This document shows positions 1,338-64,000 of a stretch of DNA of 64,000 bases, one piece after another. The DNA lies in the IMG/VR virus record IMGVR_UViG_3300024348_000005, positions 83,744 to 147,743 of that record, one strand, 5' to 3'. Positions within the stretch are counted from its first letter, which is position 1, and every line of letters starts with the position of its first letter. The position numbers and the translations under genes were made by a program. Under the pieces are notes generated by a model. That model was not told where the DNA came from. It made no database searches and saw only the letters and a list, made by a program, of their open reading frames with translations. This DNA is from a virus.

Positions 1338-1360
1338 AATTGAATGAGGGAACCATACAT

Positions 1361-3337: not shown

Positions 3338-3365
3338 AAAATAAATGAAATTAAGTAAATAACAA

Positions 3366-3374
3366 ATATTTATA
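3366..3374 (+). promoter_or_regulatory. Putative late promoter RTATTTATA
   Basis: atatttata about 35 nt upstream of ATG 3410. Confidence 0.6.
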
Positions 3375-3409
3375 AAGGACTTAGTGTAATATAAAAACAA
3401 AAGTAAAAA

Positions 3410-9181: not shown

Positions 9182-9201
9182 GATTTAAATAAAAAATAGA
9201 T

Positions 9202-9229
9202 AAAAAGGGGGAATTTATCCCCCTTTTTT
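9202..9229 (+). terminator. Intrinsic terminator, possibly bidirectional
   Basis: aaaaaggggga-loop-tcccccttttt stem after the stop at 9181. Confidence 0.85.
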
Positions 9230-9249
9230 ATTTTATAACAAACCGTTTA

Positions 9250-9258
9250 ATATTTATA
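9250..9258 (+). promoter_or_regulatory. Putative late promoter RTATTTATA
   Basis: atatttata between the terminator and ATG 9294. Confidence 0.6.
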
Positions 9259-9293
9259 TAGTAACACATTAGTGGAAATGAAACTAATCAATT

Positions 9294-12200
9294 ATGGCAA
9301 ACGAATTTAGAGTCAAAAATGGCCTCGTTGTATCGGGGTCTGCAGAAATACAAAACGATTTAATCGTTCAAGGTACAATAACAGCAAAAGAAATACATAC
9401 AAGTTTAGTTACTTCGTCTGTTATTTTTGAATCAGGTTCGACCAAATTTGGTAACACTAATGATGATACTCATCAATTTACGGGTAGTTTAAATATATCA
9501 GGTTCATTAATTCTTAATGATACCAATTTTTCAGCATTTACTTCAGGAACAAGTGGAACTTCAGGAACGTCAGGTAGTAGTGGAACCGCGGGAACTTCAG
9601 GTTCTTCAGGTTCAAGTGGTTCTTCAGGTTCTAGTGGTAGTTCAGGAACATCCGGTACGTCCGGAACCTCAGGTTCTTCAGGAAGTTCAGGTACTTCAGG
9701 TTCAAGTGGTTCCTCAGGTTTAGCGGGAAGTAGTGGAACATCGGGAACATCAGGTTCTAATGGTTCTTCAGGAACGGCTGGTACTTCAGGTACTTCGGGT
9801 TCTTCAGGAACTGGCGGAACGTCAGGTTCTTCAGGTTCTAGTGGTTCATCAGGAACTTCGGGTTCATCAGGAAGTTCAGGTAGTTCAGGTACGAGCGGAA
9901 CATCGGGGTCTAGTGGGTCTTCAGGAACATCAGGTTCTTCAGGTTCAAGTGGTTCTTCAGGTTTAAGTGGATCTTCAGGTTCAAGTGGTTCTTCAGGAAC
10001 AGCAGGAACTTCAGGTTCATCAGGAACAAGTGGAACCGCAGGCACTTCGGGTACCTCGGGAAGTTCAGGTAGTAGTGGTAGTAGTGGTAGTAACGGCACA
10101 TCGGGTAGTTCGGGAAGTTCAGGTTCAAGTGGAACATCAGGTTCCTCAGGTAGTTCAGGTTCTTCAGGAACTGCGGGTACAAGTGGGTCTTCAGGTACAT
10201 CAGGTTCTTCGGGTTCAAGCGGAACATCTGGTTCTAGTGGTTCTTCAGGAACTGCAGGAACATCAGGTTCAAGTGGTAGTTCAGGTGTATCAGGTACAAG
10301 TGGAAGTTCGGGTAGTACCGGCACGTCAGGTACATCAGGTACTTCAGGTTCAAGCGGTTCTTCGGGTTCTTCAGGAAGTTCAGGTATTAGTGGTACTAAT
10401 GGAACGTCAGGAACAAGTGGTAGTAGTGGTTCAAGTGGAACATCAGGTTCTAGTGGTTCAAGTGGAAGTTCTGGCACATCAGGTACAAGTGGAAGTTCTG
10501 GTACATCGGGGTCTTCAGGTTCAAGCGGTACATCTGGTAGTTCAGGTTCTTCAGGTACCGCAGGAACAAGTGGTTCAAACGGAACGTCAGGAACGTCCGG
10601 TTCGAGTGGAAGTTCTGGTGTGTCGGGTAGTTCAGGTGTATCAGGTTCATCAGGAACATCAGGTACTAGTGGTTCATCAGGTTCAAGTGGTTCATCAGGA
10701 AGTTCGGGTACATCAGGTTCTTCTGGTAGTAGTGGAACAAATGGACTTACGGGTACATCAGGAACATCAGGTTCATCTGGTTCAACAACAGTTGGGGCAT
10801 ATGAATCTATGACTGTTACATCGGGAAGTACCACATGGAACTTTCAACACAATTTAGGAGCAAAATATCCTGTTTTTCAAGTATTTGACCAAAATGATAA
10901 AGTCATAATACCGACTGAAATACGTGTTATAGATTTATACAATGCTGAAATTTTATTTTCACAACCTCAAACAGGAACAGTTAGTGTTACGTTAGGTAAA
11001 AGTGGAGGAGGATCATCGGGTACTTCAGGTAGTTCAGGTAGTTCAGGAACAAGTGGTACTTCGGGTTTAAGTGGTTCAAGCGGAAGTTCTGGATTATCAG
11101 GTACTAACGGTTCATCAGGTTCTAGTGGTACTGCAGGTTCTTCAGGAACAAGTGGAGCGTCGGGTTCATCTGGTTCAGGTGGTACTTCAGGTTCATCAGG
11201 AACAAGTGGTAGAGATGGTATTGGAGGTACAACACAAACATTTGCATCATCCACAACATGGTCTGTAGCTCATAATTTAGGTACTGATTTTCCGGTGGTA
11301 ACTGTTTGGGATGATAATAAAAATGTTGTCATTCCAAATCAAATAAAATCAATTAATTCAAACAATCTTGATGTTTATTTTGGTAATCCAATTTCAGGTA
11401 GTATTAATGTAGTTTATGGTGGACACGTTGTTAGTGGTGCTATTGATACATCGGCAGTTGGACACATTGTACCATCACTTGATAATACATATGATTTAGG
11501 ATCACCATCAAAACAATTTAGAGACTTATACTTATCAAGTGCTTCGTTATATATTGATGGACAAAAAGTTTTAAGTTCAACAAATCAAGAATTACAGATT
11601 ACAACCGATACGGGTCAATCAATTAAGATTTTAGAAGATGGTAGTGATAATATAATTTTACAAACTGTTGATGGTGATGTTGAATTAAAATCTTCGGGTG
11701 GAGGTGATATATTATTAGACCCTACCGCAGGTTTAATTTCGGTTAAAGGAACATTACAAGTACAAGATGGTAGTAAAATTACAAGTTCAGGAGCAACTAA
11801 AGTTGTTTTTGGAAATGATATTGAGGTAACAGGTTCAATTAGAACAAATGGTACATTGATTATAAATGGTGTTTCATTCTCAGCAATGACATCAGGAACC
11901 TCAGGAACAAGTGGTACTAGTGGTTCATCAGGTACTAGTGGGTCTTCAGGTTCTAATGGATCAAGTGGTTCATCAGGAACAGCTGGTAGTTCGGGGTCTA
12001 GTGGAACATCAGGTTCTGGTGGTTCATCAGGAACTGCCGGTACAAGTGGAACGTCAGGTTCAAGTGGAACATCAGGTAGTTCGGGGTCTAATGGTTCAAG
12101 TGGTTCATCGGGAGATTCAATATTTGCACAAACAGGGTCTATATGGTCAGCAACTAAAGATGTTGAAATTACCGGCTCATTAAAAGTTAAAGGTGCAATT

Positions 12201-13037
12201 ACAGCCGACGAACTTTATATGACATATGTCACATCATCCGTTATGTATTCATCAGGGTCAACTAAATTTGGTGATACATTAGATGATACACATCAAGTTA
12301 CGGGTAGTTTAAGTATAACAGGTTCATTATCGATAAATGGAACATCATATACCGCGGCAACATCAGGAACTAGTGGTTCATCAGGAACATCAGGAACTGC
12401 TGGTTCTTCAGGAACGTCAGGTTCTAGCGGTAGTAATGGTTCTTCAGGAACGTCAGGTTCTAGCGGAACTTCAGGTTCAAGCGGTTCTTCAGGAACATCA
12501 GGTTCTTCAGGAACATCAGGTTCATCAGGTTCATCAGGTAGTTCAGGTTCATCAGGTACATCGGGAAGTAGTGGTTCTTCAGGTTCTAGCGGAACTTCAG
12601 GTTCTTCAGGTTCTTCAGGTACATCGGGAAGTAGTGGTTCTTCAGGTTCTAGCGGAACTTCAGGAAGTTCAGGTTCTAACGGTTCTTCAGGTTCTAGTGG
12701 TACAACAACAATCACAAATGCGGTTGATAATAGAGTAATGACGAGTGTTGGTGGTGTTACATTAAATGCTGAAGCCAATTTAACATTTGACGGATCAACA
12801 TTAACGGTAGCGGGTAACGTTTTACCTGAAGCAACCGGAACAAGAGATTTGGGTTCTTCATCATATCGTTGGAGTACAGTTTATACATCGGATTTATCCT
12901 TAAACAACGGAATAGGTGATTGGACAATAGTAGAAGGTGAAGATGATTTATTCTTATACAATAATAAGAAGGGTAAAGTTTACAAATTTGCATTAACCGA
13001 AGTTGACCCTAATGTTGCAACTCCTAAAAAATCTTAA
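9294..13037 (+). CDS. Modular tail-fibre-like protein (1247 aa) with G-S/T-S tracts
   Basis: N-terminus MANEFRVKNGL parallels MANQFIVKNGL of 3410; C-terminal DLGSSSYRWSTVYTSDL...WTIVEGEDDLFL...KVYKF resembles fibre termini of aquatic myophages. Confidence 0.8.
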   Translation: MANEFRVKNGLVVSGSAEIQNDLIVQGTITAKEIHTSLVTSSVIFESGSTKFGNTNDDTHQFTGSLNISGSLILNDTNFSAFTSGTSGTSGTSGSSGTAGTSGSSGSSGSSGSSGSSGTSGTSGTSGSSGSSGTSGSSGSSGLAGSSGTSGTSGSNGSSGTAGTSGTSGSSGTGGTSGSSGSSGSSGTSGSSGSSGSSGTSGTSGSSGSSGTSGSSGSSGSSGLSGSSGSSGSSGTAGTSGSSGTSGTAGTSGTSGSSGSSGSSGSNGTSGSSGSSGSSGTSGSSGSSGSSGTAGTSGSSGTSGSSGSSGTSGSSGSSGTAGTSGSSGSSGVSGTSGSSGSTGTSGTSGTSGSSGSSGSSGSSGISGTNGTSGTSGSSGSSGTSGSSGSSGSSGTSGTSGSSGTSGSSGSSGTSGSSGSSGTAGTSGSNGTSGTSGSSGSSGVSGSSGVSGSSGTSGTSGSSGSSGSSGSSGTSGSSGSSGTNGLTGTSGTSGSSGSTTVGAYESMTVTSGSTTWNFQHNLGAKYPVFQVFDQNDKVIIPTEIRVIDLYNAEILFSQPQTGTVSVTLGKSGGGSSGTSGSSGSSGTSGTSGLSGSSGSSGLSGTNGSSGSSGTAGSSGTSGASGSSGSGGTSGSSGTSGRDGIGGTTQTFASSTTWSVAHNLGTDFPVVTVWDDNKNVVIPNQIKSINSNNLDVYFGNPISGSINVVYGGHVVSGAIDTSAVGHIVPSLDNTYDLGSPSKQFRDLYLSSASLYIDGQKVLSSTNQELQITTDTGQSIKILEDGSDNIILQTVDGDVELKSSGGGDILLDPTAGLISVKGTLQVQDGSKITSSGATKVVFGNDIEVTGSIRTNGTLIINGVSFSAMTSGTSGTSGTSGSSGTSGSSGSNGSSGSSGTAGSSGSSGTSGSGGSSGTAGTSGTSGSSGTSGSSGSNGSSGSSGDSIFAQTGSIWSATKDVEITGSLKVKGAITADELYMTYVTSSVMYSSGSTKFGDTLDDTHQVTGSLSITGSLSINGTSYTAATSGTSGSSGTSGTAGSSGTSGSSGSNGSSGTSGSSGTSGSSGSSGTSGSSGTSGSSGSSGSSGSSGTSGSSGSSGSSGTSGSSGSSGTSGSSGSSGSSGTSGSSGSNGSSGSSGTTTITNAVDNRVMTSVGGVTLNAEANLTFDGSTLTVAGNVLPEATGTRDLGSSSYRWSTVYTSDLSLNNGIGDWTIVEGEDDLFLYNNKKGKVYKFALTEVDPNVATPKKS
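9541..12700 (+). repeat. Coding G-S/T-S tracts (approx. 9541-10785, 11010-11210, 11890-12112, 12360-12700)
   Basis: Tripeptide periodicity; a 50-nt exact duplication with 63-nt period at 12552/12615. Confidence 0.9.
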
Positions 13038-47368: not shown

Positions 47369-47485
47369 ATGAAAAAGTTATTTAAGTGGATTTTAGACAA
47401 GATTGAAGCGTATAAAAAGAAAAAAAGATTCAAAAAGAAATTAGAAGAATTACGTAAAAGAGACCCATTTATTTATAATCATTAA
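47369..47485 (+). CDS. 38-aa basic peptide ending RDPFIYNH (not in ORF track)
   Basis: Hand translation MKKLFKWILDKIEAYKKKKRFKKKLEELRKRDPFIYNH, directly after the carbamoyltransferase. Confidence 0.7.
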   Translation: MKKLFKWILDKIEAYKKKKRFKKKLEELRKRDPFIYNH

Positions 47486-47488
47486 TAT

Positions 47489-47517
47489 TTGACTTTTTGG
47501 TAAAAGTTAAGTATATT
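47489..47517 (+). promoter_or_regulatory. Sigma70-like promoter TTGACT-N17-TATATT
   Basis: Near-consensus -35 and 17-nt spacer, about 10 nt before ATG 47527. Confidence 0.65.
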
Positions 47518-47526
47518 AGTAGTATT

Positions 47527-47964
47527 ATGATATATTGGTTTACCGGACAACCCGCAGCAGGAAAAACGACTTTAGCTAAACATTTAGAGTCGTATATTTC
47601 ACATTCAAATAAGGTTATTCACATTGACGGTGATGATTTAAGAGATATCTTTCAAAATAAAGACTATTCCGAAACGGGTAGAAGAAAAAATATTGAAAGA
47701 GCTCAAGACATTGCTCGTTTTATGAGTGAAAAAGGATATGACGTTGTTGTGTCACTTGTTTCACCATATAGAGACCAAAGAGAACAATTTAAAGAAAATA
47801 ACGAAGTTCATGAGATTTATGTTCGTACCACCGATGATAGAGGTAGAAATGATTTTCATGTAACCAATTACGAAGCTCCAACTGACGATTTCGTTGAAAT
47901 CGATACAACAGATAGATTGGAGGTTGATTCGTTTATTGAATTAACAATAAAATTAAAAATATGA
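47527..47964 (+). CDS. cysC: Adenylylsulfate (APS) kinase
   Basis: WFTGQPAAGKTT, IDGDDLR, YS..GR..NI, VSLVSPY, YEAP. Confidence 0.85.
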   Translation: MIYWFTGQPAAGKTTLAKHLESYISHSNKVIHIDGDDLRDIFQNKDYSETGRRKNIERAQDIARFMSEKGYDVVVSLVSPYRDQREQFKENNEVHEIYVRTTDDRGRNDFHVTNYEAPTDDFVEIDTTDRLEVDSFIELTIKLKI

Positions 47965-48341
47965 GTAAAAAGTACGCAATGTATGTGGGGCGTTGGCAAA
48001 ATTGGCATAAGGGTCACGAATGGCTTATTAACCAACAATTAGAGAAAGGAAAAGACGTATGGGTTGCAATTAGAAACGTACCCACAGATGAAAATAACCC
48101 AAAAACCGCACAACAGGTAATGATGGATTTATCTGAGGAGACTTTCTTTAAAGAAAATTCACAAAGAATTAATATATCAATTATTCCTGATATTGAGAGT
48201 ATCAATTATGGTAGAGGGGTTGGGTATGATGTTATTTACCATGAACCACCTCCAGATGTTGCAGTTATTAGTGGTACAGCAATTAGAACCGGCCACATGA
48301 CACCTGATGGTGAAATTAAATATGACCAAACAAAAGGATAA
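47961..48341 (+). CDS. Minimal HxGH nucleotidyltransferase (candidate ATP sulfurylase)
   Basis: GRWQNWHKGH and ISGTAIR motifs; coupled to cysC. Confidence 0.65.
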   Translation: MSKKYAMYVGRWQNWHKGHEWLINQQLEKGKDVWVAIRNVPTDENNPKTAQQVMMDLSEETFFKENSQRINISIIPDIESINYGRGVGYDVIYHEPPPDVAVISGTAIRTGHMTPDGEIKYDQTKG

Positions 48342-48556
48342 TGATAGTAGAAAGAAAAAGACATATCGCCAAAACCGTCTCATATCGTATTGTAAGTACC
48401 CTTATTGGATTTGTTATAATGTGGTGGGTAAGCGGTTCAATAAAGGTTGGTGCCGCATTTGGGATAGCCGAATTAATATATAAACCCATCCAATATTATC
48501 TTCATGAAAGAATTTGGTATAAATGGATAAAATTTGGTCTAAAAGATAAAAAATAA
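48341..48556 (+). CDS. DUF2061-like small membrane protein
   Basis: RHIAKTVSYRI, hydrophobic segments, YYLHERIW. Confidence 0.75.
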   Translation: MIVERKRHIAKTVSYRIVSTLIGFVIMWWVSGSIKVGAAFGIAELIYKPIQYYLHERIWYKWIKFGLKDKK

Positions 48557-48565
48557 GTATTTATA
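48557..48565 (+). promoter_or_regulatory. Putative late promoter RTATTTATA
   Basis: gtatttata about 18 nt before ATG 48583; same motif precedes the fibre genes. Confidence 0.55.
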
Positions 48566-48582
48566 TATAAAACTAAGAAAAT

Positions 48583-50079
48583 ATGAGAACAGTATTAATA
48601 GGTTCGGACTTTATGTACGATCAGGATGGTAATTTAAAACCCATTGAAATAAACACCGCAGTTGGTTGGGATAATGCATCTAAAGTTGAACATGATGTGG
48701 ATTCTTTGGATTTAACAAATTTATACCAATTTGTTACTGATAATAACTTCCAAAATATACATTATGTAGGTGATATACAATATTTCCATAAAACATTAGA
48801 AACACACTATACAGGAAGTTCCGTTACATATGAATACCACGCAATCGGTGGTTTGTCGATTACTATTCCATTTATAGAGGATAATGATGAAACATTGATT
48901 ATCAGAAGTGCATATGATACAACAGCGTTGGTAGATGATACCTATTGTAGAGATAAGGTTGAATTTATGAAACTTATCCAATCTCAATCATTCGGTTCAC
49001 AATTTGCTTACATAGATGAAAACAATACTTTAATTAATACCATAACAACAATACCAGATAATGGTGTACATCCGAATTTTATTCTAAAATCAAGGTATCC
49101 TGGTTATGATAAAGAGGTTTATCCTAAATTTTATAAAGTAACAACACAAGAAGAATTAGATGTGGTTTTAGAAAATGTAACATCTGATTACTTCTTAATG
49201 GAGAATTATTGTAACACTACTAATAATTACGAAGGACATATAAAGATAATTAGAAGTTTAAATATATTATATCCACCGACATTAGAATCAATTCAAATTG
49301 GACAATATACCAAATTGAATGAAAACGTATTTTTTTCTGAAGTAGAATATAACTCAGAAACCCATGAGATAAATTCAGAATATAGAGATAGTTACACAAC
49401 TAACACAAATGGTAGATGGCTACCTAAACTATTAGATACGGATATGGTCGAAATGGGCGATGGTACATTTAAAACTGCGTTAGATTTAAATGTTGATGAT
49501 GTAATTAAAACAATAGATATTCCAAATCCAAATGGTATTGATAATTCATCCTATGTTGGAAATTTTGGAATATCATACGAAACATTACTAAGTGGTACAA
49601 CGTATTCAACAAATAAAATTATTGCATTAAAGAGAGTTAATAAATTATCATATTTTTATCAATTAACTTTTGATGATGATAGTACTTGGGAGGATACCGG
49701 AGTTTCTTCGTATTTGATTGAAAGAAATAACGAAGTTCAATTTGAACATTTATTTGATGTGGTAAATGGAGATGTGGTTTTATTGTTAAACACAACGGAC
49801 GGGTTAATGGATTTTGTTAGAAAAACAATAGTGTCTGTTGTTCAAGTTAAAAAGGTATTTACCGGTTGGTTTATTTCAGTAGAAAGAGCACACTTATTTT
49901 TAACTAAGACCACATCAACAAATAACGAATCATTTGTTTCTATTGAACATAATGGACCAGCATGTCCAGTGGGATGTTGTTCCGCTTCATGTCCAACGTG
50001 TCCCAAATCCGAACCTCAATGCTCTGGTCCAGTATGGGCTCCAACATGTAATGGTTATTCGGGAATATGTTACTCATAA
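48583..50079 (+). CDS. Circularly permuted ATP-grasp-like / Hint domain / Cys-rich peptide fusion
   Basis: DFMYDQDGNLKPIEINT, NFILKS, FLMENY (CP ATP-grasp-like); Hint blocks ending IEHN; then GPACPVGCCSASCPTCPKSEPQCSGPVWAPTCNGYSGICYS. Confidence 0.7.
   Translation: MRTVLIGSDFMYDQDGNLKPIEINTAVGWDNASKVEHDVDSLDLTNLYQFVTDNNFQNIHYVGDIQYFHKTLETHYTGSSVTYEYHAIGGLSITIPFIEDNDETLIIRSAYDTTALVDDTYCRDKVEFMKLIQSQSFGSQFAYIDENNTLINTITTIPDNGVHPNFILKSRYPGYDKEVYPKFYKVTTQEELDVVLENVTSDYFLMENYCNTTNNYEGHIKIIRSLNILYPPTLESIQIGQYTKLNENVFFSEVEYNSETHEINSEYRDSYTTNTNGRWLPKLLDTDMVEMGDGTFKTALDLNVDDVIKTIDIPNPNGIDNSSYVGNFGISYETLLSGTTYSTNKIIALKRVNKLSYFYQLTFDDDSTWEDTGVSSYLIERNNEVQFEHLFDVVNGDVVLLLNTTDGLMDFVRKTIVSVVQVKKVFTGWFISVERAHLFLTKTTSTNNESFVSIEHNGPACPVGCCSASCPTCPKSEPQCSGPVWAPTCNGYSGICYS
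49426..49953 (+). other. Hint (intein-like) domain lacking the N-terminal nucleophile
   Basis: KLLDTDMVEMGDGTFKTALDLNVDD aligns to CFxxGTxVxMxDGxxKxIxDLxVGD with Cys1 replaced by Lys; LTFDDDSTWEDT; DVVNGD; ISVERAHLF...IEHN. Confidence 0.7.
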
Positions 50080-50100
50080 AATAATAAAAATTAAAATAAT

Positions 50101-50190
50101 ATGGCAACTATAATAACAAACACAGAAATCAACGTTCTAAATACAACTTTAACTACCATTGGTAATTTAATTGTAACCGCAAATAGTTAA
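50101..50190 (+). CDS. 29-aa Thr/Asn/Ile-rich peptide (not in ORF track)
   Basis: MATIITNTEINVLNTTLTTIGNLIVTANS; fills the intergenic gap after an A-rich leader. Confidence 0.55.
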   Translation: MATIITNTEINVLNTTLTTIGNLIVTANS

Positions 50191-50208
50191 CTCTAAAAAT
50201 AATAGGTT

Positions 50209-50739
50209 ATGGTTTATTTCATTCCCAATGTACTTTCAAAGGTGGAGTGTGAATTCTTGTCTAAACAATTTGATATTGAAAAAATAAATCACGCTTCTGG
50301 TGATAAAGTAGTAGATACAAATGCTTCCTTTGGGTTTAGACCTTCATATAATTTTGATAAATATTTAGATATTCTAAAACCAAAAGTATTAGAATTCAAT
50401 AATGAAATCGAACACTTAGATAATGTAAACACATATGTTAGAGAGTATTTCAATAGTGCATTTTTAACAAAACATATAGATAGAACAGATATAAGTGTAA
50501 CAATGTCAATATGTTTAGAGTCAACAATAAATAAAGAATGGCCGCTATTTGTAGAAATAGATGGTAAGGAATATTCACATCACACAAATGTGGGTGATGG
50601 AATAATATTATTTGATGCTGATAAAAACGTTCATTGGAGAAATCCTTTAGAATGTGACGAAACCCAAAGAGTATTACAATTTTTTCTACATTGGATGCCA
50701 ATTAATTATGTTGCAAAGAAAAATAAATCATTAATATAA
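50209..50739 (+). CDS. 2OG-Fe(II) oxygenase
   Basis: LTKHIDR, SVTMSICL, WPLF, HWR; ends KSLI. Confidence 0.8.
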   Translation: MVYFIPNVLSKVECEFLSKQFDIEKINHASGDKVVDTNASFGFRPSYNFDKYLDILKPKVLEFNNEIEHLDNVNTYVREYFNSAFLTKHIDRTDISVTMSICLESTINKEWPLFVEIDGKEYSHHTNVGDGIILFDADKNVHWRNPLECDETQRVLQFFLHWMPINYVAKKNKSLI

Positions 50740-51347
50740 TGTTAGATGCAATAAAATTTTCAGAAGAATTATCAATATATACCACAAAAATTAGTGATAT
50801 TGATAATGAACAACTTTCTAAAGATTTAGAATTGAATTGTAATATAAATAAAAACTTAATTAAGGGTGATAATATTCCGGGTATACAATCTGATATTATT
50901 ATAACTTCTAAAAATATCCAAGATTTAGAAATTAAAATTATAAAAATAATAAAAGATTTTTTAAAACTAAAGGATGATTATGTAATATATAAGTGGTATT
51001 GGACATACATTAGTGATTCTAATAATACACTATCAAAATATCATAACCATGTAACAAATTATAATATTGAATATTCAAGAGAAATTCCACAATGGTCATT
51101 AGTTTATTATGCAAGTTTCCCCAATAATTTGGAAGGGAATGATGGCATGTCATTATTCCAAACAAAATCAGGTGAAGAATTTTCAATATTACCCGAAGAA
51201 AGTCAGATAATAATATTTCCATCGGATGTACTACATAAACCCGGATTGAATAAAAATTCTACTAAAAAAAGAATAGTTTTTGCAGCTAACGTAGCAATTT
51301 TAGATACAAATAAAGAATATTCTAAAAAACAAAAATCATTAATATAA
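50739..51347 (+). CDS. 2OG-Fe(II) oxygenase-like protein (HxH type)
   Basis: YHNH, WSLVYY, IFPS.VLH, RIVFAAN; ends KSLI. Confidence 0.7.
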   Translation: MLDAIKFSEELSIYTTKISDIDNEQLSKDLELNCNINKNLIKGDNIPGIQSDIIITSKNIQDLEIKIIKIIKDFLKLKDDYVIYKWYWTYISDSNNTLSKYHNHVTNYNIEYSREIPQWSLVYYASFPNNLEGNDGMSLFQTKSGEEFSILPEESQIIIFPSDVLHKPGLNKNSTKKRIVFAANVAILDTNKEYSKKQKSLI

Positions 51348-51353
51348 AAAGTT

Positions 51354-51926
51354 ATGTCGTTTACATATAAATCTATATCAAATTTATTAACAAAAGAAGA
51401 ATGTAATTTAGTTCTAAATTTCACATTAGAAAATTTAATATTAAAACCTGCTGAAATTGTAGGAGATAATAATCACAATTACGATGCTAGAAAATCAAAT
51501 GTGGTGTTTTATCCATATTATCAAAAATTTTCATTTATTTTAGAAAAAATATCTAAATTATTAGATGAAAATATTTTAATAAAAGGATTTGACTTAGATT
51601 ACAAAAATAGTCAATTCCAATTCACAGAATATAAAATTGGGGATTACTTTGCGTGGCATAAAGATATTACAGGAAATGAAGTTACACAATATGATAGATA
51701 TTGTTCGTTAGTTATACAATTAAATGATGAATATGAAGATGGTGATTTAGAATTAAAATTATCGGATGATTCAATAATGAAAGTAGAAAAGGGAATAGGT
51801 AATACTATTGTTTTTTTATCAGATATTGAACACAGAGTAACTGGTGTTAAAAATGGTAATAGATATACATTAGTTAATTGGGTTGGTTTAAAAAAAACCA
51901 ATAATTATAAAAAAACACTATTATAA
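51354..51926 (+). CDS. 2OG-Fe(II) oxygenase, prolyl-4-hydroxylase/PKHD-like
   Basis: QFTEY, WHKD, YEDGDL, HRVT.V..G.RY.LV.W; ends KTLL. Confidence 0.85.
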   Translation: MSFTYKSISNLLTKEECNLVLNFTLENLILKPAEIVGDNNHNYDARKSNVVFYPYYQKFSFILEKISKLLDENILIKGFDLDYKNSQFQFTEYKIGDYFAWHKDITGNEVTQYDRYCSLVIQLNDEYEDGDLELKLSDDSIMKVEKGIGNTIVFLSDIEHRVTGVKNGNRYTLVNWVGLKKTNNYKKTLL

Positions 51927-51927
51927 T

Positions 51928-52224
51928 ATGATAGATTTCAAAGAAATTTCAACTGCGTGGTACAATACACTTATACATTCTAATGAATTAAAAAAATTAG
52001 CAGATAATAGGTTTGATATTTGTTTAGAATGCCCATCTAAGCAAGAAATGTTTAAAGGAAAGGAATGGTCCCTCAGATGTGGAGAATGTGGTTGCCCATT
52101 AAAAGGTAAAGTATATACCCCAAAAACATATTTAGATAAAAAGGGGTCGTGTCCATTAGGAAAATGGAAAGAAGTTGAAGATGAATATTTAAAAAGTTTT
52201 AAAAAATCTAAAACTATTATATAA
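51928..52224 (+). CDS. Small Cys-rich metal-binding protein (DUF6171-like)
   Basis: RFDICLECP...CGECGCPL..K...CPLGKW; ends KTII. Confidence 0.7.
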   Translation: MIDFKEISTAWYNTLIHSNELKKLADNRFDICLECPSKQEMFKGKEWSLRCGECGCPLKGKVYTPKTYLDKKGSCPLGKWKEVEDEYLKSFKKSKTII

Positions 52225-52226
52225 CA

Positions 52227-52907
52227 ATGTCCCATTTAATTAATAATGAACTTATTTGGGTTTCAATTCCAAAGTGCGCTAGTTACTCCATTGAAAGGTC
52301 ATTAAGAAACTCAAAATTAAATTTAGAATTAATTGAACCAAATGACAAAACACTTCATTTTCACATACCTCTAAATCAATGTTTAGAACGATGGGGCGAT
52401 AAAGAAACTGTTTGTATAACTCGTAATTGGTTATTTAGATGGTTAAGTGCCTTAAATTTTATTTGGGATAACATAGAATTTGAAAGCGAATATAATGCAA
52501 TTCGTAATTGGGAGGATGTTGATAATGAATATATCTATAAAACATTTGATACCGATTTTTTAAATAATTTACATTTGTTGAGTAATGATTATGATGGATT
52601 TAGGAAATGCTGGTTTAAACTGGTAAAAGAAAATTTTGAATGTGAATTACCAATTCGAGGTGCGGTTGACACTTTACTTTCTCAAAGATTTTACAAATCT
52701 AATAAAAAATGCACCTACGAATTTGATATTAGTGAGATTGATAAATTTATAGATTTTATAGAAGATAAGTTTGGTGAAAGATTGATTATAAATCACACAA
52801 ATAGAACATCTAAGAGACCAAATAAGATAATCGTAAATGATGAATTAAAATCATTTATTTGGGATAATTTCGAAAAAAGATTTGAAAAGGGAAATTATTT
52901 AATATAA
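52227..52907 (+). CDS. Sulfotransferase family 2-like protein
   Basis: WVSIPKCASYSI (5'-PSB loop), RN...RWLS (3'-PB); ends NYLI. Confidence 0.7.
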   Translation: MSHLINNELIWVSIPKCASYSIERSLRNSKLNLELIEPNDKTLHFHIPLNQCLERWGDKETVCITRNWLFRWLSALNFIWDNIEFESEYNAIRNWEDVDNEYIYKTFDTDFLNNLHLLSNDYDGFRKCWFKLVKENFECELPIRGAVDTLLSQRFYKSNKKCTYEFDISEIDKFIDFIEDKFGERLIINHTNRTSKRPNKIIVNDELKSFIWDNFEKRFEKGNYLI

Positions 52908-53638
52908 TGATAGTAGATAAAAAATTTATTTTTATAAGTCTACCAAGATGTGCATCAACATCATTTATGATTACGTGCCTTAAAAACAAAATACCAATAG
53001 AACATCTTAATTCAAATTTTGATAATCAGTTGATTAAGATAAATGAATGGGAAAAAATGAATAATGAAGAATTATCTGATAGTTTACTACACGCGCATGA
53101 GCCATTATATAAATTACAAGAGAAATTTGGGGTAACCAATCAAATTATTTCAATAAGAAGAAACAATTACGATAGATTTTTATCTTTATGGAAACATATC
53201 ATAGATGAATTATATAGAATCAAAAAACTTGATATTGCGGATATATTTTCAAAACTAACAACTAATCATATATTTGAAAATATTAAATCAAATGACATTT
53301 ATAATTCAGAAAATAGATATAAAGTTATTGATAATTTTTTAACTAAATTAGAAATTTCAAAAAAAGAATCTTATATCAAAAATATGTTAGATATATTATT
53401 TACACCAATAGTTGAACTCACAAATGGTAATCCAAATATTATTTGGTTTGATATTGATAATTTAGTGGAATTAGAAAATTGGGTATCAAAAAAATTAAAT
53501 AAGGATTTTAAAATGGAAAAAATAAACTCAAGTAAACAATTTGAGTGTGCAATAGAAATCAATGATGATTTTAAACAAAAATATGATAATCTTTATAAAG
53601 AATTCGAACAAAGAAAAATAAATAAAACATTAATTTAA
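52907..53638 (+). CDS. Sulfotransferase family 2-like protein
   Basis: FIFISLPRCASTS, RRNNYDRFLS; ends KTLI. Confidence 0.7.
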   Translation: MIVDKKFIFISLPRCASTSFMITCLKNKIPIEHLNSNFDNQLIKINEWEKMNNEELSDSLLHAHEPLYKLQEKFGVTNQIISIRRNNYDRFLSLWKHIIDELYRIKKLDIADIFSKLTTNHIFENIKSNDIYNSENRYKVIDNFLTKLEISKKESYIKNMLDILFTPIVELTNGNPNIIWFDIDNLVELENWVSKKLNKDFKMEKINSSKQFECAIEINDDFKQKYDNLYKEFEQRKINKTLI

Positions 53639-54109
53639 GTGGAAATTTATAAAAACATATTAACAAATGATTTTTGTGATACTTTAATTGAAAAAATTAA
53701 GAATCAATGTGTGTTAAGTGAATCACATAAAACAGATTGGTTTGTTTGGTTAATATGGGGCCAACAAGGTATTCAACTACTTGATAGAGAAAAGTGGAAT
53801 GAAGAAATTTATAATATGATAATAAATGAGTTGGATAAATGTAATTTTCCTAAACATAAAATAATGTGGTTACAAATGACGGAATACAAAGATGGTAGGT
53901 GGTTACGAAGACACATGGATGGTGCAGGAAACAAAACATCAATAATTTTGTTATCCAATGGGTTTGTAGGTGGAGATACCTATATAAATGATAGAGTTGT
54001 AAATTTAGAAAAAGGTGATGGTGTTGTATTTGCTGGCGGTCACCAATATCACGAAATAAAACCAGTAACGAAAGGAACACGATACGCATTAAATTTTTGG
54101 TTTCATTAA
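53639..54109 (+). CDS. 2OG-Fe(II) oxygenase, prolyl-4-hydroxylase-like
   Basis: HMD, FVGGDT, HEIKPVTKGTRY. Confidence 0.85.
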   Translation: MEIYKNILTNDFCDTLIEKIKNQCVLSESHKTDWFVWLIWGQQGIQLLDREKWNEEIYNMIINELDKCNFPKHKIMWLQMTEYKDGRWLRRHMDGAGNKTSIILLSNGFVGGDTYINDRVVNLEKGDGVVFAGGHQYHEIKPVTKGTRYALNFWFH

Positions 54110-54118
54110 TAATATATT

Positions 54119-55162
54119 ATGGTAGATTTAAAAAACTATACATGCAACGTACCATTCACCTCATTAGAAGTACATAATAATGTATGTTTTGTTTGTTGTC
54201 CATCTTGGTTACCCAATAAAGTAGAACTTAGTGAAATTCCACTAAAAGATGTTTTTAATAGTGAACCAATTATTGATATTAGAAATTCTATTTTAGATGG
54301 TTCATTTAAGTATTGTAGTAAAGAACTTTGTCCCTATTTAAGTAAATTGGTAAACTATGGCGTAACATCAGGACCTGTTACTTTAAACTCGGATTCAAAC
54401 ATTAATAGTCCGATTGTAGAAAATAATACACCTGATTATTTAGTAATGAATTTTGATAGGACTTGTAATTATAAATGTCCATCATGTAGAGTAGATTTGA
54501 TTGTTGAAGATAGTAAAGGTATAAGACGTGTTGAAAAAACGATTGAGGATATTGATAAATATTATTCACAGCATGTAAAAACATTATACATTACTGGCTC
54601 TGGCGACCCATTTGTATCTGTTGGATTCCGAAATTATTTAAGAAATTTTAATCCTAAAAAATATCCTAATTTAAAATCCATACATCTTCATACTAACGCA
54701 TCTATGTGGAATAAAGAAATGTGGGACAGTATGCCAAACGTACACAAATACGTTCATACTTGTGAAATTAGTATAGATGCGGGTACAAAAGATACTTACG
54801 AAAATAAAACAAGAATAGGTGGTAATTGGGATAACTTATTGGGTAATTTAAAATTTATTAACACCCTACCAAATATGAATGTAAAAACATCCTTCGTTGT
54901 ACAAGATACAAATTATACCGAAATGGAAACATTTTATAATTTGATGTATTCTATTTTTGATAAAAAGGTAAATGTATTTTTTGGTAAGATAACTAATTGG
55001 GGGACATTTTCAGAAGGTGAATTTAAATTAAAACAAGTGTGGGATATAGAACATCCAGAACACCAGTTATTTAAAAAAGAGTTTAATAAAATATGGAAAA
55101 ACACAAATCTATTTCACAATCTATATGAGTTTATTGATACTACAAATAAAACGTTAATATAA
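54119..55162 (+). CDS. Radical SAM enzyme with N-terminal auxiliary Cys cluster
   Basis: CNVPF..VCCP...CSKELCP; CNYKCPSC; GSGDPF; ends KTLI. Confidence 0.85.
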   Translation: MVDLKNYTCNVPFTSLEVHNNVCFVCCPSWLPNKVELSEIPLKDVFNSEPIIDIRNSILDGSFKYCSKELCPYLSKLVNYGVTSGPVTLNSDSNINSPIVENNTPDYLVMNFDRTCNYKCPSCRVDLIVEDSKGIRRVEKTIEDIDKYYSQHVKTLYITGSGDPFVSVGFRNYLRNFNPKKYPNLKSIHLHTNASMWNKEMWDSMPNVHKYVHTCEISIDAGTKDTYENKTRIGGNWDNLLGNLKFINTLPNMNVKTSFVVQDTNYTEMETFYNLMYSIFDKKVNVFFGKITNWGTFSEGEFKLKQVWDIEHPEHQLFKKEFNKIWKNTNLFHNLYEFIDTTNKTLI

Positions 55163-55659
55163 TGAAAATTTTATTAATTACTTTACCTAGAACCGGGTCA
55201 ACCTCATTATTAAAAAAAATATCCAAAGAACAAAAACTAAATTCAATAAGTGAACCATTCAACAATGTTAATGGTAATTCGGAAAAATACAAATATTATA
55301 ATTGGAAAAGTACAAACGATATATGTGTTAAAACACATATAAATCACAAAGACATACCATTTTATTTAGAGTTTATTAAATTTTTTGATGAAGTGATTTT
55401 ATTATCCAGAAAAGATTTAAACGCATGTGCAGAAAGTTTATCTTACGCAAACCATTTTCAAAGTTTTACGGAAAAATATAAATGGATTAAGACACCCAAT
55501 CTTAATGAAAATATTAAATTAGTAAAAGAATTTAATGAAGAATTAGAAAAACTATCCAAATTAACCAATATTAAAATTTCATATTATGAGGAATTGTTTG
55601 ATTCAGAATCGGAAGATAAATTAAGAAAAAATGATATTAAAAGAGAAAATCTTATTTAG
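55162..55659 (+). CDS. Sulfotransferase-like (P-loop) protein
   Basis: LPRTGSTSL, SEPF, VKTH, LSRKD....ES, YYEEL; ends ENLI. Confidence 0.65.
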   Translation: MKILLITLPRTGSTSLLKKISKEQKLNSISEPFNNVNGNSEKYKYYNWKSTNDICVKTHINHKDIPFYLEFIKFFDEVILLSRKDLNACAESLSYANHFQSFTEKYKWIKTPNLNENIKLVKEFNEELEKLSKLTNIKISYYEELFDSESEDKLRKNDIKRENLI

Positions 55660-56131
55660 TAAGGAGGAGTGTGAATCTATAATATCATATAACGACACAC
55701 ATATTACAAATTGGTTAATGGGAGATAGAAAATACAATTCACAACCAATTAATTATTCATTAGAAACCAAATGGTTATTTGATAAATTAAAAGAATTTGT
55801 TGAAGAAAATACTGATATTAAAATAAAGAAAATTAAAGAAACAATACATTTTCATAAATTTACAAAAGATGATTGGTTTGGAAAACATAACGATATTAGA
55901 GATAATAGATTATATGCTGTGGGAGTTTTATTAAACGATGAATTTGAAGGGGGTGATTTTAAATTATACAACCCAAATCAAATTATATTAGATAAAGTTA
56001 TTGGAAATACATATTTATTTGATGTAAGAATAGACCACGAAATAACACCAATTTTAGAAGGTGAACGATATTCTTTATTATGGTTTTTAGAAAATGAACA
56101 TATAAAAATAGAAACAAATAAATTAATATGA
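55631..56131 (+). CDS. 2OG-Fe(II) oxygenase
   Basis: HND, LNDEFEGGDF, HEITPILEGERY; ends NKLI. Confidence 0.85.
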   Translation: MILKEKILFSKEECESIISYNDTHITNWLMGDRKYNSQPINYSLETKWLFDKLKEFVEENTDIKIKKIKETIHFHKFTKDDWFGKHNDIRDNRLYAVGVLLNDEFEGGDFKLYNPNQIILDKVIGNTYLFDVRIDHEITPILEGERYSLLWFLENEHIKIETNKLI

Positions 56132-56934
56132 ACCCATTAGAATATTGGAATTCAGAAGGATTTGAAATTTCATCTTATATGTATTCATTAAGGGGAAGAG
56201 TAAATAAAACATACAGAACTTCCGGTAGTGATAATACCGAAAAATGTACCTACACCTATAATGAATTAGGATTTAGGGGTGATAGTATAAAAAAAGAAGG
56301 TTTTAAAGTCATGTCATTAGGATGTTCAAATACCGAAGGTGTTGGAGTAAATCATTATGAAACATGGCCATCTCAATTCACATCATTAATACCAAACGGT
56401 ATTAATATGAATTTTGGTACGGGGGGTAGAAGTAATGATTTCATTACTAGATGTCTATTAACATATTATGATATAATAAAACCTGATTTGGTATTAATAA
56501 TGTATACAGATCCATTTAGAAGAGAATTTTATACTAAAGATGGTGGGATAGAACCCTTTATGCCAACAGTATCTTGGGGATATTTGAAAGAAACAGATGA
56601 CGGTGTTAAAACACAAGAATATTTAACTTATTTACAAAATAATAACGAGGACATAATAAATTGGCATAAAAATCATTTATTAATAAAGTATTTTTTAGAA
56701 TCAAAAAAATGTAATTGGATATGGAATGGTTTTTTCAATATACCAAAAGATTGTAATGAATTTAATAGATTTGATGGCGATTACGATATGCCTTTTTTGG
56801 ATTTTGGAGTTGATGGGGTACATCCAGGTCCAAACCACAATAAAACATACGCTCATAAATTGTATAATTTCATATCAAAAAATTTCCCACATTACATATA
56901 TTACTTACCCAAAAATAAACAAAGTTTGATTTGA
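56128..56934 (+). CDS. SGNH-like protein
   Basis: YNELGFRG, LGCSNTEGVG, NFGTGGRSN, DGVHPG; ends QSLI. Confidence 0.7.
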   Translation: MNPLEYWNSEGFEISSYMYSLRGRVNKTYRTSGSDNTEKCTYTYNELGFRGDSIKKEGFKVMSLGCSNTEGVGVNHYETWPSQFTSLIPNGINMNFGTGGRSNDFITRCLLTYYDIIKPDLVLIMYTDPFRREFYTKDGGIEPFMPTVSWGYLKETDDGVKTQEYLTYLQNNNEDIINWHKNHLLIKYFLESKKCNWIWNGFFNIPKDCNEFNRFDGDYDMPFLDFGVDGVHPGPNHNKTYAHKLYNFISKNFPHYIYYLPKNKQSLI

Positions 56935-62531: not shown

Positions 62532-64000
62532 ATGAAAATATTTGAACCAGTTATAACAGGGTCCCTTTCAGTATCAGGATCGGCAAATGTCTCAGGAGAC
62601 TTAACCGTACTTGGTACTATAAACGCATCGATTAGCGGTACAACAACGAACGCGACAAGTGCTTCACATGCGTTGTACGCGGATGACGCTAATAAATTGG
62701 ATGGTAAAGACTCATCCGAATTTGCAATAACGGGAAGTAACGTATTTAAAGCGAGTCAAACAATTACTGGCTCACTTTTCGTCACGACCGATATAATATT
62801 AAACGGACAATCGTACACAGGACAAACGTCAGGTACATCAGGTTCCTCAGGTTCGTCAGGTTCAAGTGGAACGGCCGGTAGTTCAGGTTCTAGTGGATCA
62901 TCAGGTTCTAGTGGGTCATCGGGCTCTTCAGGTTCTAACGGTAGTTCAGGAACAAGTGGAAGTTCTGGTTCATCAGGCTCATCAGGAACTTCAGGTTCTA
63001 ACGGTAGTTCAGGAACCGCAGGTACATCAGGATCATCTGGTTCAAGTGGATCATCTGGAAGTAGTGGTTCTTCAGGAACAAGTGGTTCATCAGGTTCTTC
63101 GGGTTCTTCAGGAACATCAGGTTCTTCAGGGTCAAGTGGTTCATCAGGTTCATCAGGAAGTTCAGGAACTGTTACTTTAAGTGGTACAACAGATAATGGT
63201 TTATTAACATTGAACGGTAGTTCACCTAACGTTAGTGTTGAACCTAACTTAACTTTTGATGGTACAACACTTACAGTTACGGGTGATATATTAGTAACGA
63301 ACAATCTATTAGTTCAAGGTACAAATACGAATTTACAAGTTACCAACTTATATGTTGAGGACAAATTAATCACATTGGCAAGTGGGTCATTAACAGCCGC
63401 AGCTGCTAATGGTGCGGGTATTGAGGTTGTTGGACCAGCAACAGGTGCCACATTCACATACGCAAATGCTGATGATAGTTGGAATTCAAATAAAAAATTA
63501 AATGTTCCGTCACTTACAATTAACGGAACATCATATTCCGCGGCGACTTCGGGTACATCAGGAAGTTCAGGTTCTAGCGGTTCATCAGGTTCTTCAGGTT
63601 CTTCAGGTTCAAGTGGATCATCAGGAACAAGTGGTTCTTCAGGAACTTCAGGTTCTAGTGGATCATCAGGTTCTTCAGGTTCTTCAGGTTCAAGTGGTTC
63701 ATCTGGAACAAGTGGTTCTTCAGGTTCTAACGGATCTTCTGGTACATCAGGTTCTAGTGGATCATCAGGTTCTTCAGGAACAAGTGGTTCATCAGGAAGT
63801 TCTGGAAGTTCAGGAACATCAGGTTCTAGTGGTTCTTCAGGTAGTTCAGGTTCAAGTGGGTCATCAGGTAGTTCAGGTTCAAGTGGATCATCAGGTACAA
63901 CAACAATTACAAACGCAAGTGATGACCGTGTAATGACAAGTGCGGGTGGAGTTACCCTAAATAGTGAAGCAAATTTAACATTTAACGGAACAACACTATA
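62532..64000 (+). CDS. G-S/T-S repeat fibre-like protein, 3'-truncated (not in ORF track)
   Basis: MKIFEPVITGSLSVSGS... runs to the window end; shares GTTDNG..TLNGSSPN with 3410 and TITNA.D.RVMTS.GGVTLN.EANLTF with 9294. Confidence 0.8.
   Translation, partial: MKIFEPVITGSLSVSGSANVSGDLTVLGTINASISGTTTNATSASHALYADDANKLDGKDSSEFAITGSNVFKASQTITGSLFVTTDIILNGQSYTGQTSGTSGSSGSSGSSGTAGSSGSSGSSGSSGSSGSSGSNGSSGTSGSSGSSGSSGTSGSNGSSGTAGTSGSSGSSGSSGSSGSSGTSGSSGSSGSSGTSGSSGSSGSSGSSGSSGTVTLSGTTDNGLLTLNGSSPNVSVEPNLTFDGTTLTVTGDILVTNNLLVQGTNTNLQVTNLYVEDKLITLASGSLTAAAANGAGIEVVGPATGATFTYANADDSWNSNKKLNVPSLTINGTSYSAATSGTSGSSGSSGSSGSSGSSGSSGSSGTSGSSGTSGSSGSSGSSGSSGSSGSSGTSGSSGSNGSSGTSGSSGSSGSSGTSGSSGSSGSSGTSGSSGSSGSSGSSGSSGSSGSSGSSGTTTITNASDDRVMTSAGGVTLNSEANLTFNGTTL

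Follow-up and report, generated by a model that had tools for sequence, protein, structure and literature searches.

What do modification enzymes act on when they are encoded directly behind a gene that joins a ligase, a Hint domain and a short variable peptide in one polypeptide? We address this question for a 64,000-nucleotide (nt) stretch of the IMG/VR virus record IMGVR_UViG_3300024348_000005 (positions 83,744 to 147,743 of that record), hereafter the window, whose own numbering is used for its genes. The window derives from an uncultured large tailed phage and has a low GC content (~30%). Between 48583 and 56934 it carries a fusion gene of this kind, followed by a micro-gene, 2-oxoglutarate (2OG)-Fe(II) oxygenases, a protein with six invariant cysteines (the 6-Cys protein), sulfotransferase-like proteins, a radical S-adenosylmethionine (SAM) enzyme and an SGNH-like protein. 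A preliminary description had read this block as a possible tailoring operon for the peptide carried by the fusion protein, with glycans or other virion proteins as the alternative substrates. The block is a real, conserved, tag-marked enzyme train that is functionally coupled to the ligase-Hint-peptide gene, and the cassette as a whole looks like an undescribed peptide-making or peptide-attaching system. That the enzymes tailor the peptide released by the Hint domain is a reading that we put forward tentatively.

The ligase-Hint-peptide gene and its partners across relatives

The fusion gene lies on the + strand and encodes an ATP-grasp ligase domain that is circularly permuted and belongs to the eukaryotic glutathione synthetase type (residues 1-281; 48583..49425), a Hint domain ending in Asn457 (residues 282-457; 49426..49953) and a hypervariable tail of 41 amino acids (aa) followed by the stop codon (residues 458-498; 49954..50079). 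The 498-aa protein had no family match in Pfam, PHROG or NCBIfam, and its AlphaFold2 model (predicted local distance difference test, pLDDT, 86.8) consisted of two domains, the ligase and the Hint. In Foldseek the ligase domain matched 2hgs, 1m0w and 8fbz (E ~1e-5), with a distant likeness to glutathione synthetases (template modeling score, TM, ~0.3). Across 60 sequences with identities down to 23%, E22 and N24, which form the invariant E-x-N metal/ATP motif, did not vary and K169 was nearly invariant; the domain looks like an active glutathione-synthetase-type ATP-grasp ligase.

The Hint fold matched inteins, hedgehog (1at0) and BIL2, with Foldseek E values of 3e-7 to 1e-5 and a TM by target of ~0.7. 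In the same 60 sequences N457 was invariant and H456 was ~90% conserved, and the HN motif was kept in all distant homologs read. The start of the domain carries invariant P281 and K282 in place of a nucleophile, and the +1 residue after Asn457 may be G, A, N, E, Y, F, V or another. As it lacks an N-terminal nucleophile and has a variable +1 residue, the domain is not a splicing intein and can perform at most C-terminal cleavage. The family is large, with 802 protein clusters at 90% identity and 259 at 50%. Among its distant members, five homologs of 1100-1670 aa (P0175, P0180, P0185, P0191 and P0203) keep the ligase-Hint module with a SIEHN motif and have long C-terminal regions in place of the short Cys peptide, two of them with BACON domains. 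Some distant homologs (L118 and L125; proteins P0173 and P0207) have, after the Cys-rich peptide, a further, canonical Hint domain with Cys as its first residue, CF(I/V)(A/S)GT...; the peptide would there lie between two self-cleaving domains and could depart carrying a C-terminal thioester.

The tail peptide is 31-56 aa long in the family, and that of the window has eight Cys and one Lys (CPK). Among the 57 distinct tails used for composition, the number of Cys was even in every case (6, 8 or 10) and a C-x(1,2)-K motif was present in 57/57; Lys is depleted in the tails, yet none of them lacked it, against seven Lys-less tails expected. Pro made up 11% of the tails and 2.8% of the protein body, a ~4-fold enrichment. 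The tails were 0.40-0.79 identical where the bodies were 0.76-0.94 identical, and only the Cys framework and one Lys were fixed, so that the protein has the conserved part and variable core of a precursor of peptides that are made on the ribosome and modified after translation (RiPPs).

Directly after the fusion gene lies an untagged 29-aa micro-gene ending ...IGNLIVTANS (50101..50190, +). In relatives it was always 13-55 nt 3' of the fusion gene; it was found there at 83/83 loci of the first set, and diverged equivalents followed it at even the most distant loci. The micro-proteins range from 24 to 30 aa with the consensus ..EIN.LN..MT.IG.LI..ANS, in which the C-terminus is conserved. The 98-aa 6-Cys protein (51928..52224, +) has the pattern CxxC...CxxCGC...CP with six invariant Cys, ends in the tag KTII, and gave only weak zinc-ribbon-like and DUF6171 matches. 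At one locus without a fusion gene nearby (L324:8010-8681), a 6-Cys domain forms the C-terminal part of a 224-aa protein behind an unrelated N-terminal region, and this gene adjoins an oxygenase of the 176-aa type described below.

The preliminary description had proposed synteny with the fusion gene as a check on its reading. The comparison covered fusion homologs of 42-91% identity with their surroundings, at 77 loci from IMG/VR and six from metagenomes or genomes; co-occurrence was counted for the 31 distinct fusion genes flanked by 7 kb or more on each side. Of these fusion loci 100% had the 6-Cys protein and the micro-gene, and 97% had a sulfotransferase-like gene. At least one 2OG oxygenase was present at 87% (0-7 copies, median 3), the 268-aa SGNH-like protein and a carbamoyltransferase at 61% each, genes for the supply of 3'-phosphoadenosine-5'-phosphosulfate (PAPS), including adenosine-5'-phosphosulfate (APS) kinase, at 58% (within 7 kb), a radical SAM enzyme at 55% (0-2 copies) and a glycosyltransferase family 4 (GT4)-methyltransferase at 26%. 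The fusion gene, the micro-gene, the 6-Cys protein and the sulfotransferase form a fixed core, and the oxygenases, the radical SAM enzyme and the SGNH-like protein are accessory. The 6-Cys protein, the sulfotransferases and two of the oxygenases diverge at about the rate of the fusion protein. Divergence is far slower in the radical SAM enzyme and the PAPS genes, and full-length radical SAM orthologs were 74-93% identical where the fusion protein was 50-77% identical.

The order of these genes shifts among relatives, with the 6-Cys gene before or after the fusion gene and oxygenases on either side. The setting varies as well, from positions beside sheath genes or inside glycan islands to positions among unrelated genes; in most relatives the cassette lies in or beside a glycan-building island or tail genes. 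Two loci, L080 and L046, hold a bare four-gene core (fusion gene, micro-gene, 6-Cys gene and sulfotransferase gene) with no glycosyltransferase or fibre gene nearby; the neighbours there encode a TonB-type receptor, an endonuclease, a bilin reductase, a peptidoglycan hydrolase and a pyrimidine-dimer glycosylase. The bilin reductase gene (L080:20438-21064) is of the ferredoxin-dependent type, and both it and the TonB-dependent receptor-like gene stand near the bare cassette. The bare cassette L046 shares a 211-kb IMG/VR contig with a full cassette in a glycan island (L069), ~38 kb away, and the tail peptides of the two are unrelated.

Searches seeded with the partner genes led back to the fusion gene. 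The 6-Cys protein retrieved 383 IMG/VR stretches, and every kept locus had the fusion gene unless the contig was cut; among radical-SAM-seeded loci with at least 8 kb upstream the fusion gene was present in 34/34; and the loci found with the 176-aa oxygenase that had no fusion gene were truncated or just distantly related. In the sulfotransferase-seeded search, L199, L201 and L204 alone lacked a fusion gene. With neither a fusion gene nor a 6-Cys gene within 8 kb, these three are the sole clear exceptions to the linkage. The enzymes thus travel with the fusion gene across relatives of 42-91% identity, and the independent occurrence that would have spoken against the proposal was not what these reverse searches returned.

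The shared tag and the identities of the tagged proteins

The proteins downstream of the micro-gene share a C-terminal tag, [ST]-[LI]-[LI]: K/N-S/T-L/I-L/I or a close variant ends 10 of these 11 proteins. The tag is kept by the orthologs of unrelated families, namely the 176-aa oxygenase (33/35), the 202-aa oxygenase (22/23), the oxygenases of the Oxy_3 family (152/193), the 6-Cys protein (72/83), the sulfotransferases (81/96), the radical SAM enzyme (46/51) and the SGNH-like protein (33/51). It was never found on the fusion protein, the micro-genes, the PAPS trio or the carbamoyltransferase. In a complete relative of 335.6 kb, the strict form of the tag ended 7/40 genes around the fusion gene versus 4/360 elsewhere (p 1.5e-5), and nearly every gene directly 3' of the fusion gene was tagged. 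We asked whether overlaps between stop and start codons could produce the tag as an artefact and rejected this explanation: TAATG and ATGA junctions in the same operon also occur without it, tagged genes are found on the minus strand, and in the complete genome the tag is confined to the locus.

A row of + strand genes runs from 39015 to the end of the window with overlaps or gaps of at most ~30 nt. Within the block (48583-56934) all genes are on the + strand at spacings of -29 to +32 nt, with no terminator-like site between them, and scans for promoters, terminators and T4 late promoters gave nothing above shuffled controls. Genes were identified with Pfam, PHROG and NCBIfam and with family profiles built from orthologs in related loci. 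Every gene that the preliminary description had placed in the block was recovered there on the + strand, and its remark that the block contains no glycosyltransferase is correct for the window's own block.

The count of five 2OG-Fe(II) oxygenases was borne out, three by the Pfam family 2OG-FeII_Oxy_3 and two by profile-profile comparison, for which control pairs scored 0.1% in hhalign. The three Pfam-supported enzymes are a 190-aa protein of the prolyl-4-hydroxylase-like family with the tag KTLL (51354..51926, +; E 9e-12), an untagged 156-aa protein ending FWFH (53639..54109, +; E 1.6e-8) and a 166-aa protein with the tag NKLI (55631..56131, +; E 8e-6, 27.1 bits against a Pfam cutoff of 27). 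The 176-aa oxygenase (50209..50739, +; tag KSLI) matched PHROG 2954; its family aligned with the Oxy_3 family at 99.7% in hhalign (E 1.8e-26) and has an invariant HxD...H triad (H89, D91 and H142). The 202-aa protein (50739..51347, +; tag KSLI) is a probable 2OG-Fe(II) oxygenase, with a match to Pfam 2OG-FeII_Oxy_5 below the cutoff and an hhalign score of 90.7% against Oxy_3. A 181-aa gene at the same position in L003 matches Asp_Arg_Hydrox.

Three sulfotransferase-like proteins had been described. Two of these calls are upheld by invariant motifs and by fold, and the third by motifs alone. The 226-aa protein (52227..52907, +; tag-like ending NYLI) was modelled with a pLDDT of 88; its closest structures were heparan sulfate 2-O-sulfotransferase HS2ST (Z 8.8, 165 residues aligned, root-mean-square deviation 4.1) and the 6-O-sulfotransferase HS6ST (Z 7.6), with Foldseek probabilities of 0.94-0.96. 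Sulfotransferases made up 10 of the 11 best VIA matches and nearly all Foldseek matches. The 243-aa paralog (52907..53638, +; tag KTLI) aligns with it and shares the same invariant motifs, P-K-x-A-S-x-S, a His and R...S; it also matched PHROG 3347 (Gal-3-O-sulfotransferase) with an E of 1e-4. In the alignment of this family A18, S19, S21, H46, R66 and S74 were invariant and P15 and H44 nearly so, and these residues align to the PKTASTS and RDPIERLVS motifs of HS2ST, covering both PAPS-binding motifs and the catalytic His. The family profile found heparan sulfate 2-O-sulfotransferase in the PDB with an E of 0.012, and PF03567 (Sulfotransfer_2) occurred in 13-15% of the members of its Atlas neighbour clusters; no Pfam match to curated sulfotransferase models was obtained for any of the 24 aligned members. 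The 165-aa protein (55162..55659, +; tag-like ending ENLI) is a putative minimal sulfotransferase with the motifs PRTGSTS and RKD...S. Against the sulfotransferase profile its P-loop region alone aligned (20 columns, hhalign probability 10.6%), and among the identities proposed for the block this is the weakest.

PAPS supply had been assigned to the genes immediately upstream. This is firm for the APS kinase (47497..47964, +; Pfam APS_kinase E 1.6e-19), which carries no C-terminal tag, and it is inferred for the next gene, which encodes a 126-aa HxGH nucleotidyltransferase-like protein (47961..48341, +; PHROG 10255). This protein, a candidate minimal ATP sulfurylase, has weak NCBIfam adenylyltransferase matches and is always paired with the APS kinase and with a small DUF2061 membrane protein, which completes the PAPS trio (48341..48556, +; Pfam DUF2061 E 3e-15). 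Further upstream a carbamoyltransferase gene starts at 45686 (+). Between it and the APS kinase lies a very basic 38-aa micro-gene ending ...DPFIYNH (47369-47485, +); counterparts of it, which share the ending IY(N/K/R)H, occur at no fewer than 38 related loci.

The radical SAM enzyme (54119..55162, +; 347 aa, tag KTLI) has a Cys-rich N-terminal region and the CxxxCxxC motif CNYKCPSC, and it passed Pfam Radical_SAM (PF04055) with 30.9 bits against a cutoff of 29.5. Its best NCBIfam match, N_Twi_rSAM, was below the cutoff (58.8 bits versus 170), and its sole match to a SPASM model was TIGR04053 (23.8 bits versus a cutoff of 395). The last gene of the block encodes the 268-aa SGNH-like protein (56128..56934, +; tag QSLI), which had no Pfam match and carries GCS, GGRSND and DGVH motifs. 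Profile searches against solved structures gave nothing useful for this family or for the 176-aa oxygenase family. Downstream of the block a gene for a protein with GT4 and FkbM-methyltransferase parts starts at 56967 (+).

Candidate substrates of the tagged enzymes

Starting from the gene identities, folds, linkage and tag observed or computed above, we infer the substrate and every chemical step of the following scheme. The Hint domain would free the tail peptide by Asn cyclisation. The tagged enzymes, held at a complex of the fusion and 6-Cys proteins, would decorate this peptide: the oxygenases would hydroxylate Pro or other side chains, and the sulfotransferase, supplied by the phage PAPS genes, would sulfate a hydroxyl, either that of Tyr or one on a newly hydroxylated residue. 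The ligase domain would then join a C-terminal carboxylate to a peptide amine, and the product would be a disulfide-rich or metal-binding modified miniprotein. The composition of the tails weakly favours the peptide as substrate, through the Pro enrichment given above and the near universality of Tyr, which was found in 52 of the 53 tails counted for it; the lone Tyr-less tail, one instance only, belonged to either of just two loci that lack a sulfotransferase. The divergence of the 6-Cys protein, the sulfotransferases and two oxygenases at about the pace of the fusion protein points the same way.

The preliminary description had held that the enzyme set matches the chemistry of the peptide. 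Tyr and Pro lend this weak support; the covariation of tail composition lends it none, and several further results weigh against the peptide as substrate. Thioether crosslinking of the tail is disfavoured: the Cys count is even in all 57 tails, which favours disulfides or metal sites over Cys-consuming thioethers, and the radical SAM enzyme is optional, being absent from 45% of loci. In the NCBIfam scan, which included no RiPP recognition element (RRE)-specific search, that enzyme showed no convincing SPASM or RRE signature. Tail composition gave no supporting covariation with oxygenase number or radical SAM presence: the best supportive correlation, of Pro with oxygenase count, reached a rho of 0.27 (p 0.11, ignoring phylogeny), and the sole nominally significant one, of Cys count with oxygenase number, was negative (rho -0.40, p 0.017, uncorrected). 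Four complete loci lack any oxygenase, and oxygenases do occur near three tails that contain no Pro. The fold of the 226-aa sulfotransferase is nearest to the carbohydrate enzymes (heparan sulfate 2-O and 6-O), and tyrosylprotein sulfotransferases reached only Z 4.0-4.2. At the three exceptional loci (L199, L201 and L204) the sulfotransferase homologs, ~40% identical, directly follow an APS kinase. In relatives, genes of the GT9-like type and of the uncharacterised g437 family, a candidate glycosyltransferase by motif reading alone, are interleaved within the block. Finally, some proteins of the g437 and SGNH-like families encoded in the glycan part of the island (24421-44973, both strands; G001 L341-L342) carry the tag as well, so the functional set extends past the coordinates of the block.

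Several of these results would be expected if the tagged enzymes decorated virion surface proteins or glycans, namely the Gly-(Ser/Thr)-Ser fibres that flank the island. In that case sugars or the hydroxyls of Ser/Thr would receive the sulfate, sugar acylation would fall to the SGNH-like proteins, and the fusion cassette would be a further component of the surface decoration, for example one that supplies a peptide cap or anchor. We regard this as possible, if rather doubtful. The carbohydrate-like sulfotransferase fold, the pairing of sulfotransferase and APS kinase without a fusion gene, the tagged g437-family and SGNH-like genes elsewhere in the island and the interleaved GT9-like genes all speak for it. 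So do the position of the cassette in or beside a glycan island or tail genes in most relatives, the paralogy of the 268-aa SGNH-like protein with the SGNH-like genes in the glycan part (hhalign 100%, E 1.7e-40), the hundreds of G-(S/T)-S repeats in four fibre genes of the window, and the modification predicted for neighbourhoods of hydroxylase, sulfotransferase and PAPS genes (Iyer et al. 2010, PMC2938197). Three observations count against it. The four-gene core, sulfotransferase included, persists at L080 and L046 with no glycosyltransferase or fibre gene; the clear glycan-type genes of the same operon (GT4-FkbM, GT9 and carbamoyltransferase), like its PAPS genes, are untagged; and the fibres contain ~1% Pro and 0.8-2% Lys, with neither residue at X or Y of their G-X-Y repeats, so that oxygenases of the prolyl- or lysyl-hydroxylase type have no obvious target in the repeats. 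The fibre genes (1340-13037 and 62532-63998) give Pfam 'Collagen' matches over G-(S/T)-S repeats of up to 1200 residues in which Cys is absent, and their likeness to collagen is one of period only. Collagen hydroxylation, which these Pfam matches had brought into consideration, was dropped in view of the ~1% Pro and almost complete lack of Lys in the repeats.

The tag on unrelated enzyme families, concentrated at one locus, also admits a different role for these proteins, as clients of the ligase that are joined to the peptide as a Cys-rich handle and not its tailors. In this scheme the tag or the micro-protein would have its C-terminal carboxylate activated by the ATP-grasp domain and then linked to the peptide freed by the Hint domain, at the conserved Lys or the new N-terminus of that peptide, and the tethered enzymes would serve assembly, packaging or localisation. 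The glutathione synthetases, to which the ligase fold was matched here, are known as a family to act on peptide C-terminal carboxylates; E22 and N24 of the ligase are invariant and K169 nearly so, the C-terminus of the micro-protein is conserved, and Lys is depleted in the tails but never absent. We nevertheless consider this arrangement unlikely, as the tag is equally explicable as a docking or degradation signal and the ligase may act on the peptide alone, by cyclising or extending it. No PDZ domain that might read the tag, sought as PDZ_2 (PF13180), was found in three large relatives, and no alternative reader was identified either. In the same three relatives the Erv1-type sulfhydryl oxidase (PF04777) had no match, but the Erv1 control likewise matched nothing anywhere, so that this absence carries no information. 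A phage protein-tagging system that achieves a ubiquitin-like conjugation chemistry with a Hint domain and an ATP-grasp ligase strikes us as improbable. The linkage might, lastly, be no more than the inherited gene order of one phage lineage, with unrelated enzymes of auxiliary metabolism or nucleic-acid modification standing side by side, since all loci come from related uncultured aquatic phages and cyanophages such as Syn9 have tandem arrays of diverse 2OG oxygenases (PMC2938197). Such an origin is very unlikely: the linkage survives to 42% identity, through inversions of gene order and through moves to sites beside sheath genes, within glycan islands or amid unrelated genes; one contig has a second copy of the cassette, and the tag is specific to the locus.

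Comparison with known systems

Tailoring of the released peptide, if true, would represent a phage-borne, self-releasing route to sulfated, hydroxylated and disulfide-rich miniproteins, and would both open a new source of peptide chemistry and assign Hint domains a new role; should the tagged proteins be ligase clients, the cassette would represent a new protein-conjugation chemistry. Either way, the shared tag and the four-gene core make a compact system that is open to expression testing. The fusion family is common in uncultured aquatic large phages. We found no publication describing this gene layout, and no cultured phage record matched; in a collection of 50,697 deposited phage records neither the block nor the fusion protein had a match by megablast or tblastn.

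RiPP clusters, such as that of the sulfated peptide RaxX with its sulfotransferase RaxST, resemble the cassette in having a ribosomal precursor whose N-terminal part is conserved and whose C-terminal core is hypervariable, tailoring enzymes and a release step. The cassette differs from them in that the 'leader' is a 457-aa ligase and Hint module, the release is predicted to be a self-catalysed Asn cyclisation that needs no protease, the enzymes share a C-terminal tag, and the cluster is phage-encoded. The eukaryotic-type glutathione synthetase group joins a peptide C-terminal carboxylate to an amine; unlike those enzymes, the ligase here is fused to a Hint domain and a peptide.

In bacterial polymorphic toxins a HINT autopeptidase directly precedes a variable C-terminal cargo, for which autoproteolytic release has been proposed (Zhang et al. 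2012, PMC3482391). Among the known uses of a Hint domain so placed, that in such toxin-releasing modules is the nearest. The distant fusion homologs likewise bear very different cargoes after the same HN motif, whereas the cassette has no secretion domain, repeat region or immunity gene, and its cargo is a Cys-rich peptide of 31-56 aa that comes with an ATP-grasp fusion and a train of modification enzymes.

Neighbourhoods of hydroxylase, sulfotransferase and PAPS synthetase genes have been predicted to modify co-encoded collagen-like or tail-collar proteins, with hydroxylation proposed to precede sulfation (Iyer et al. 2010, PMC2938197). The window likewise contains a dioxygenase, a sulfotransferase, PAPS genes and a Gly-rich tripeptide-repeat protein. 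In contrast to those neighbourhoods, its repeats are of the G-(S/T)-S type and nearly devoid of Pro and Lys, the constant partner of the enzymes is the ligase-Hint-peptide fusion, and the core persists without fibre genes. Cyanophages such as Syn9 carry tandem rows of unrelated 2OG-Fe(II) oxygenases of unknown function (PMC2938197); for the arrays described there, unlike the enzyme train of the window, no ligase-Hint-peptide gene, 6-Cys partner, sulfotransferase or common tag is reported.

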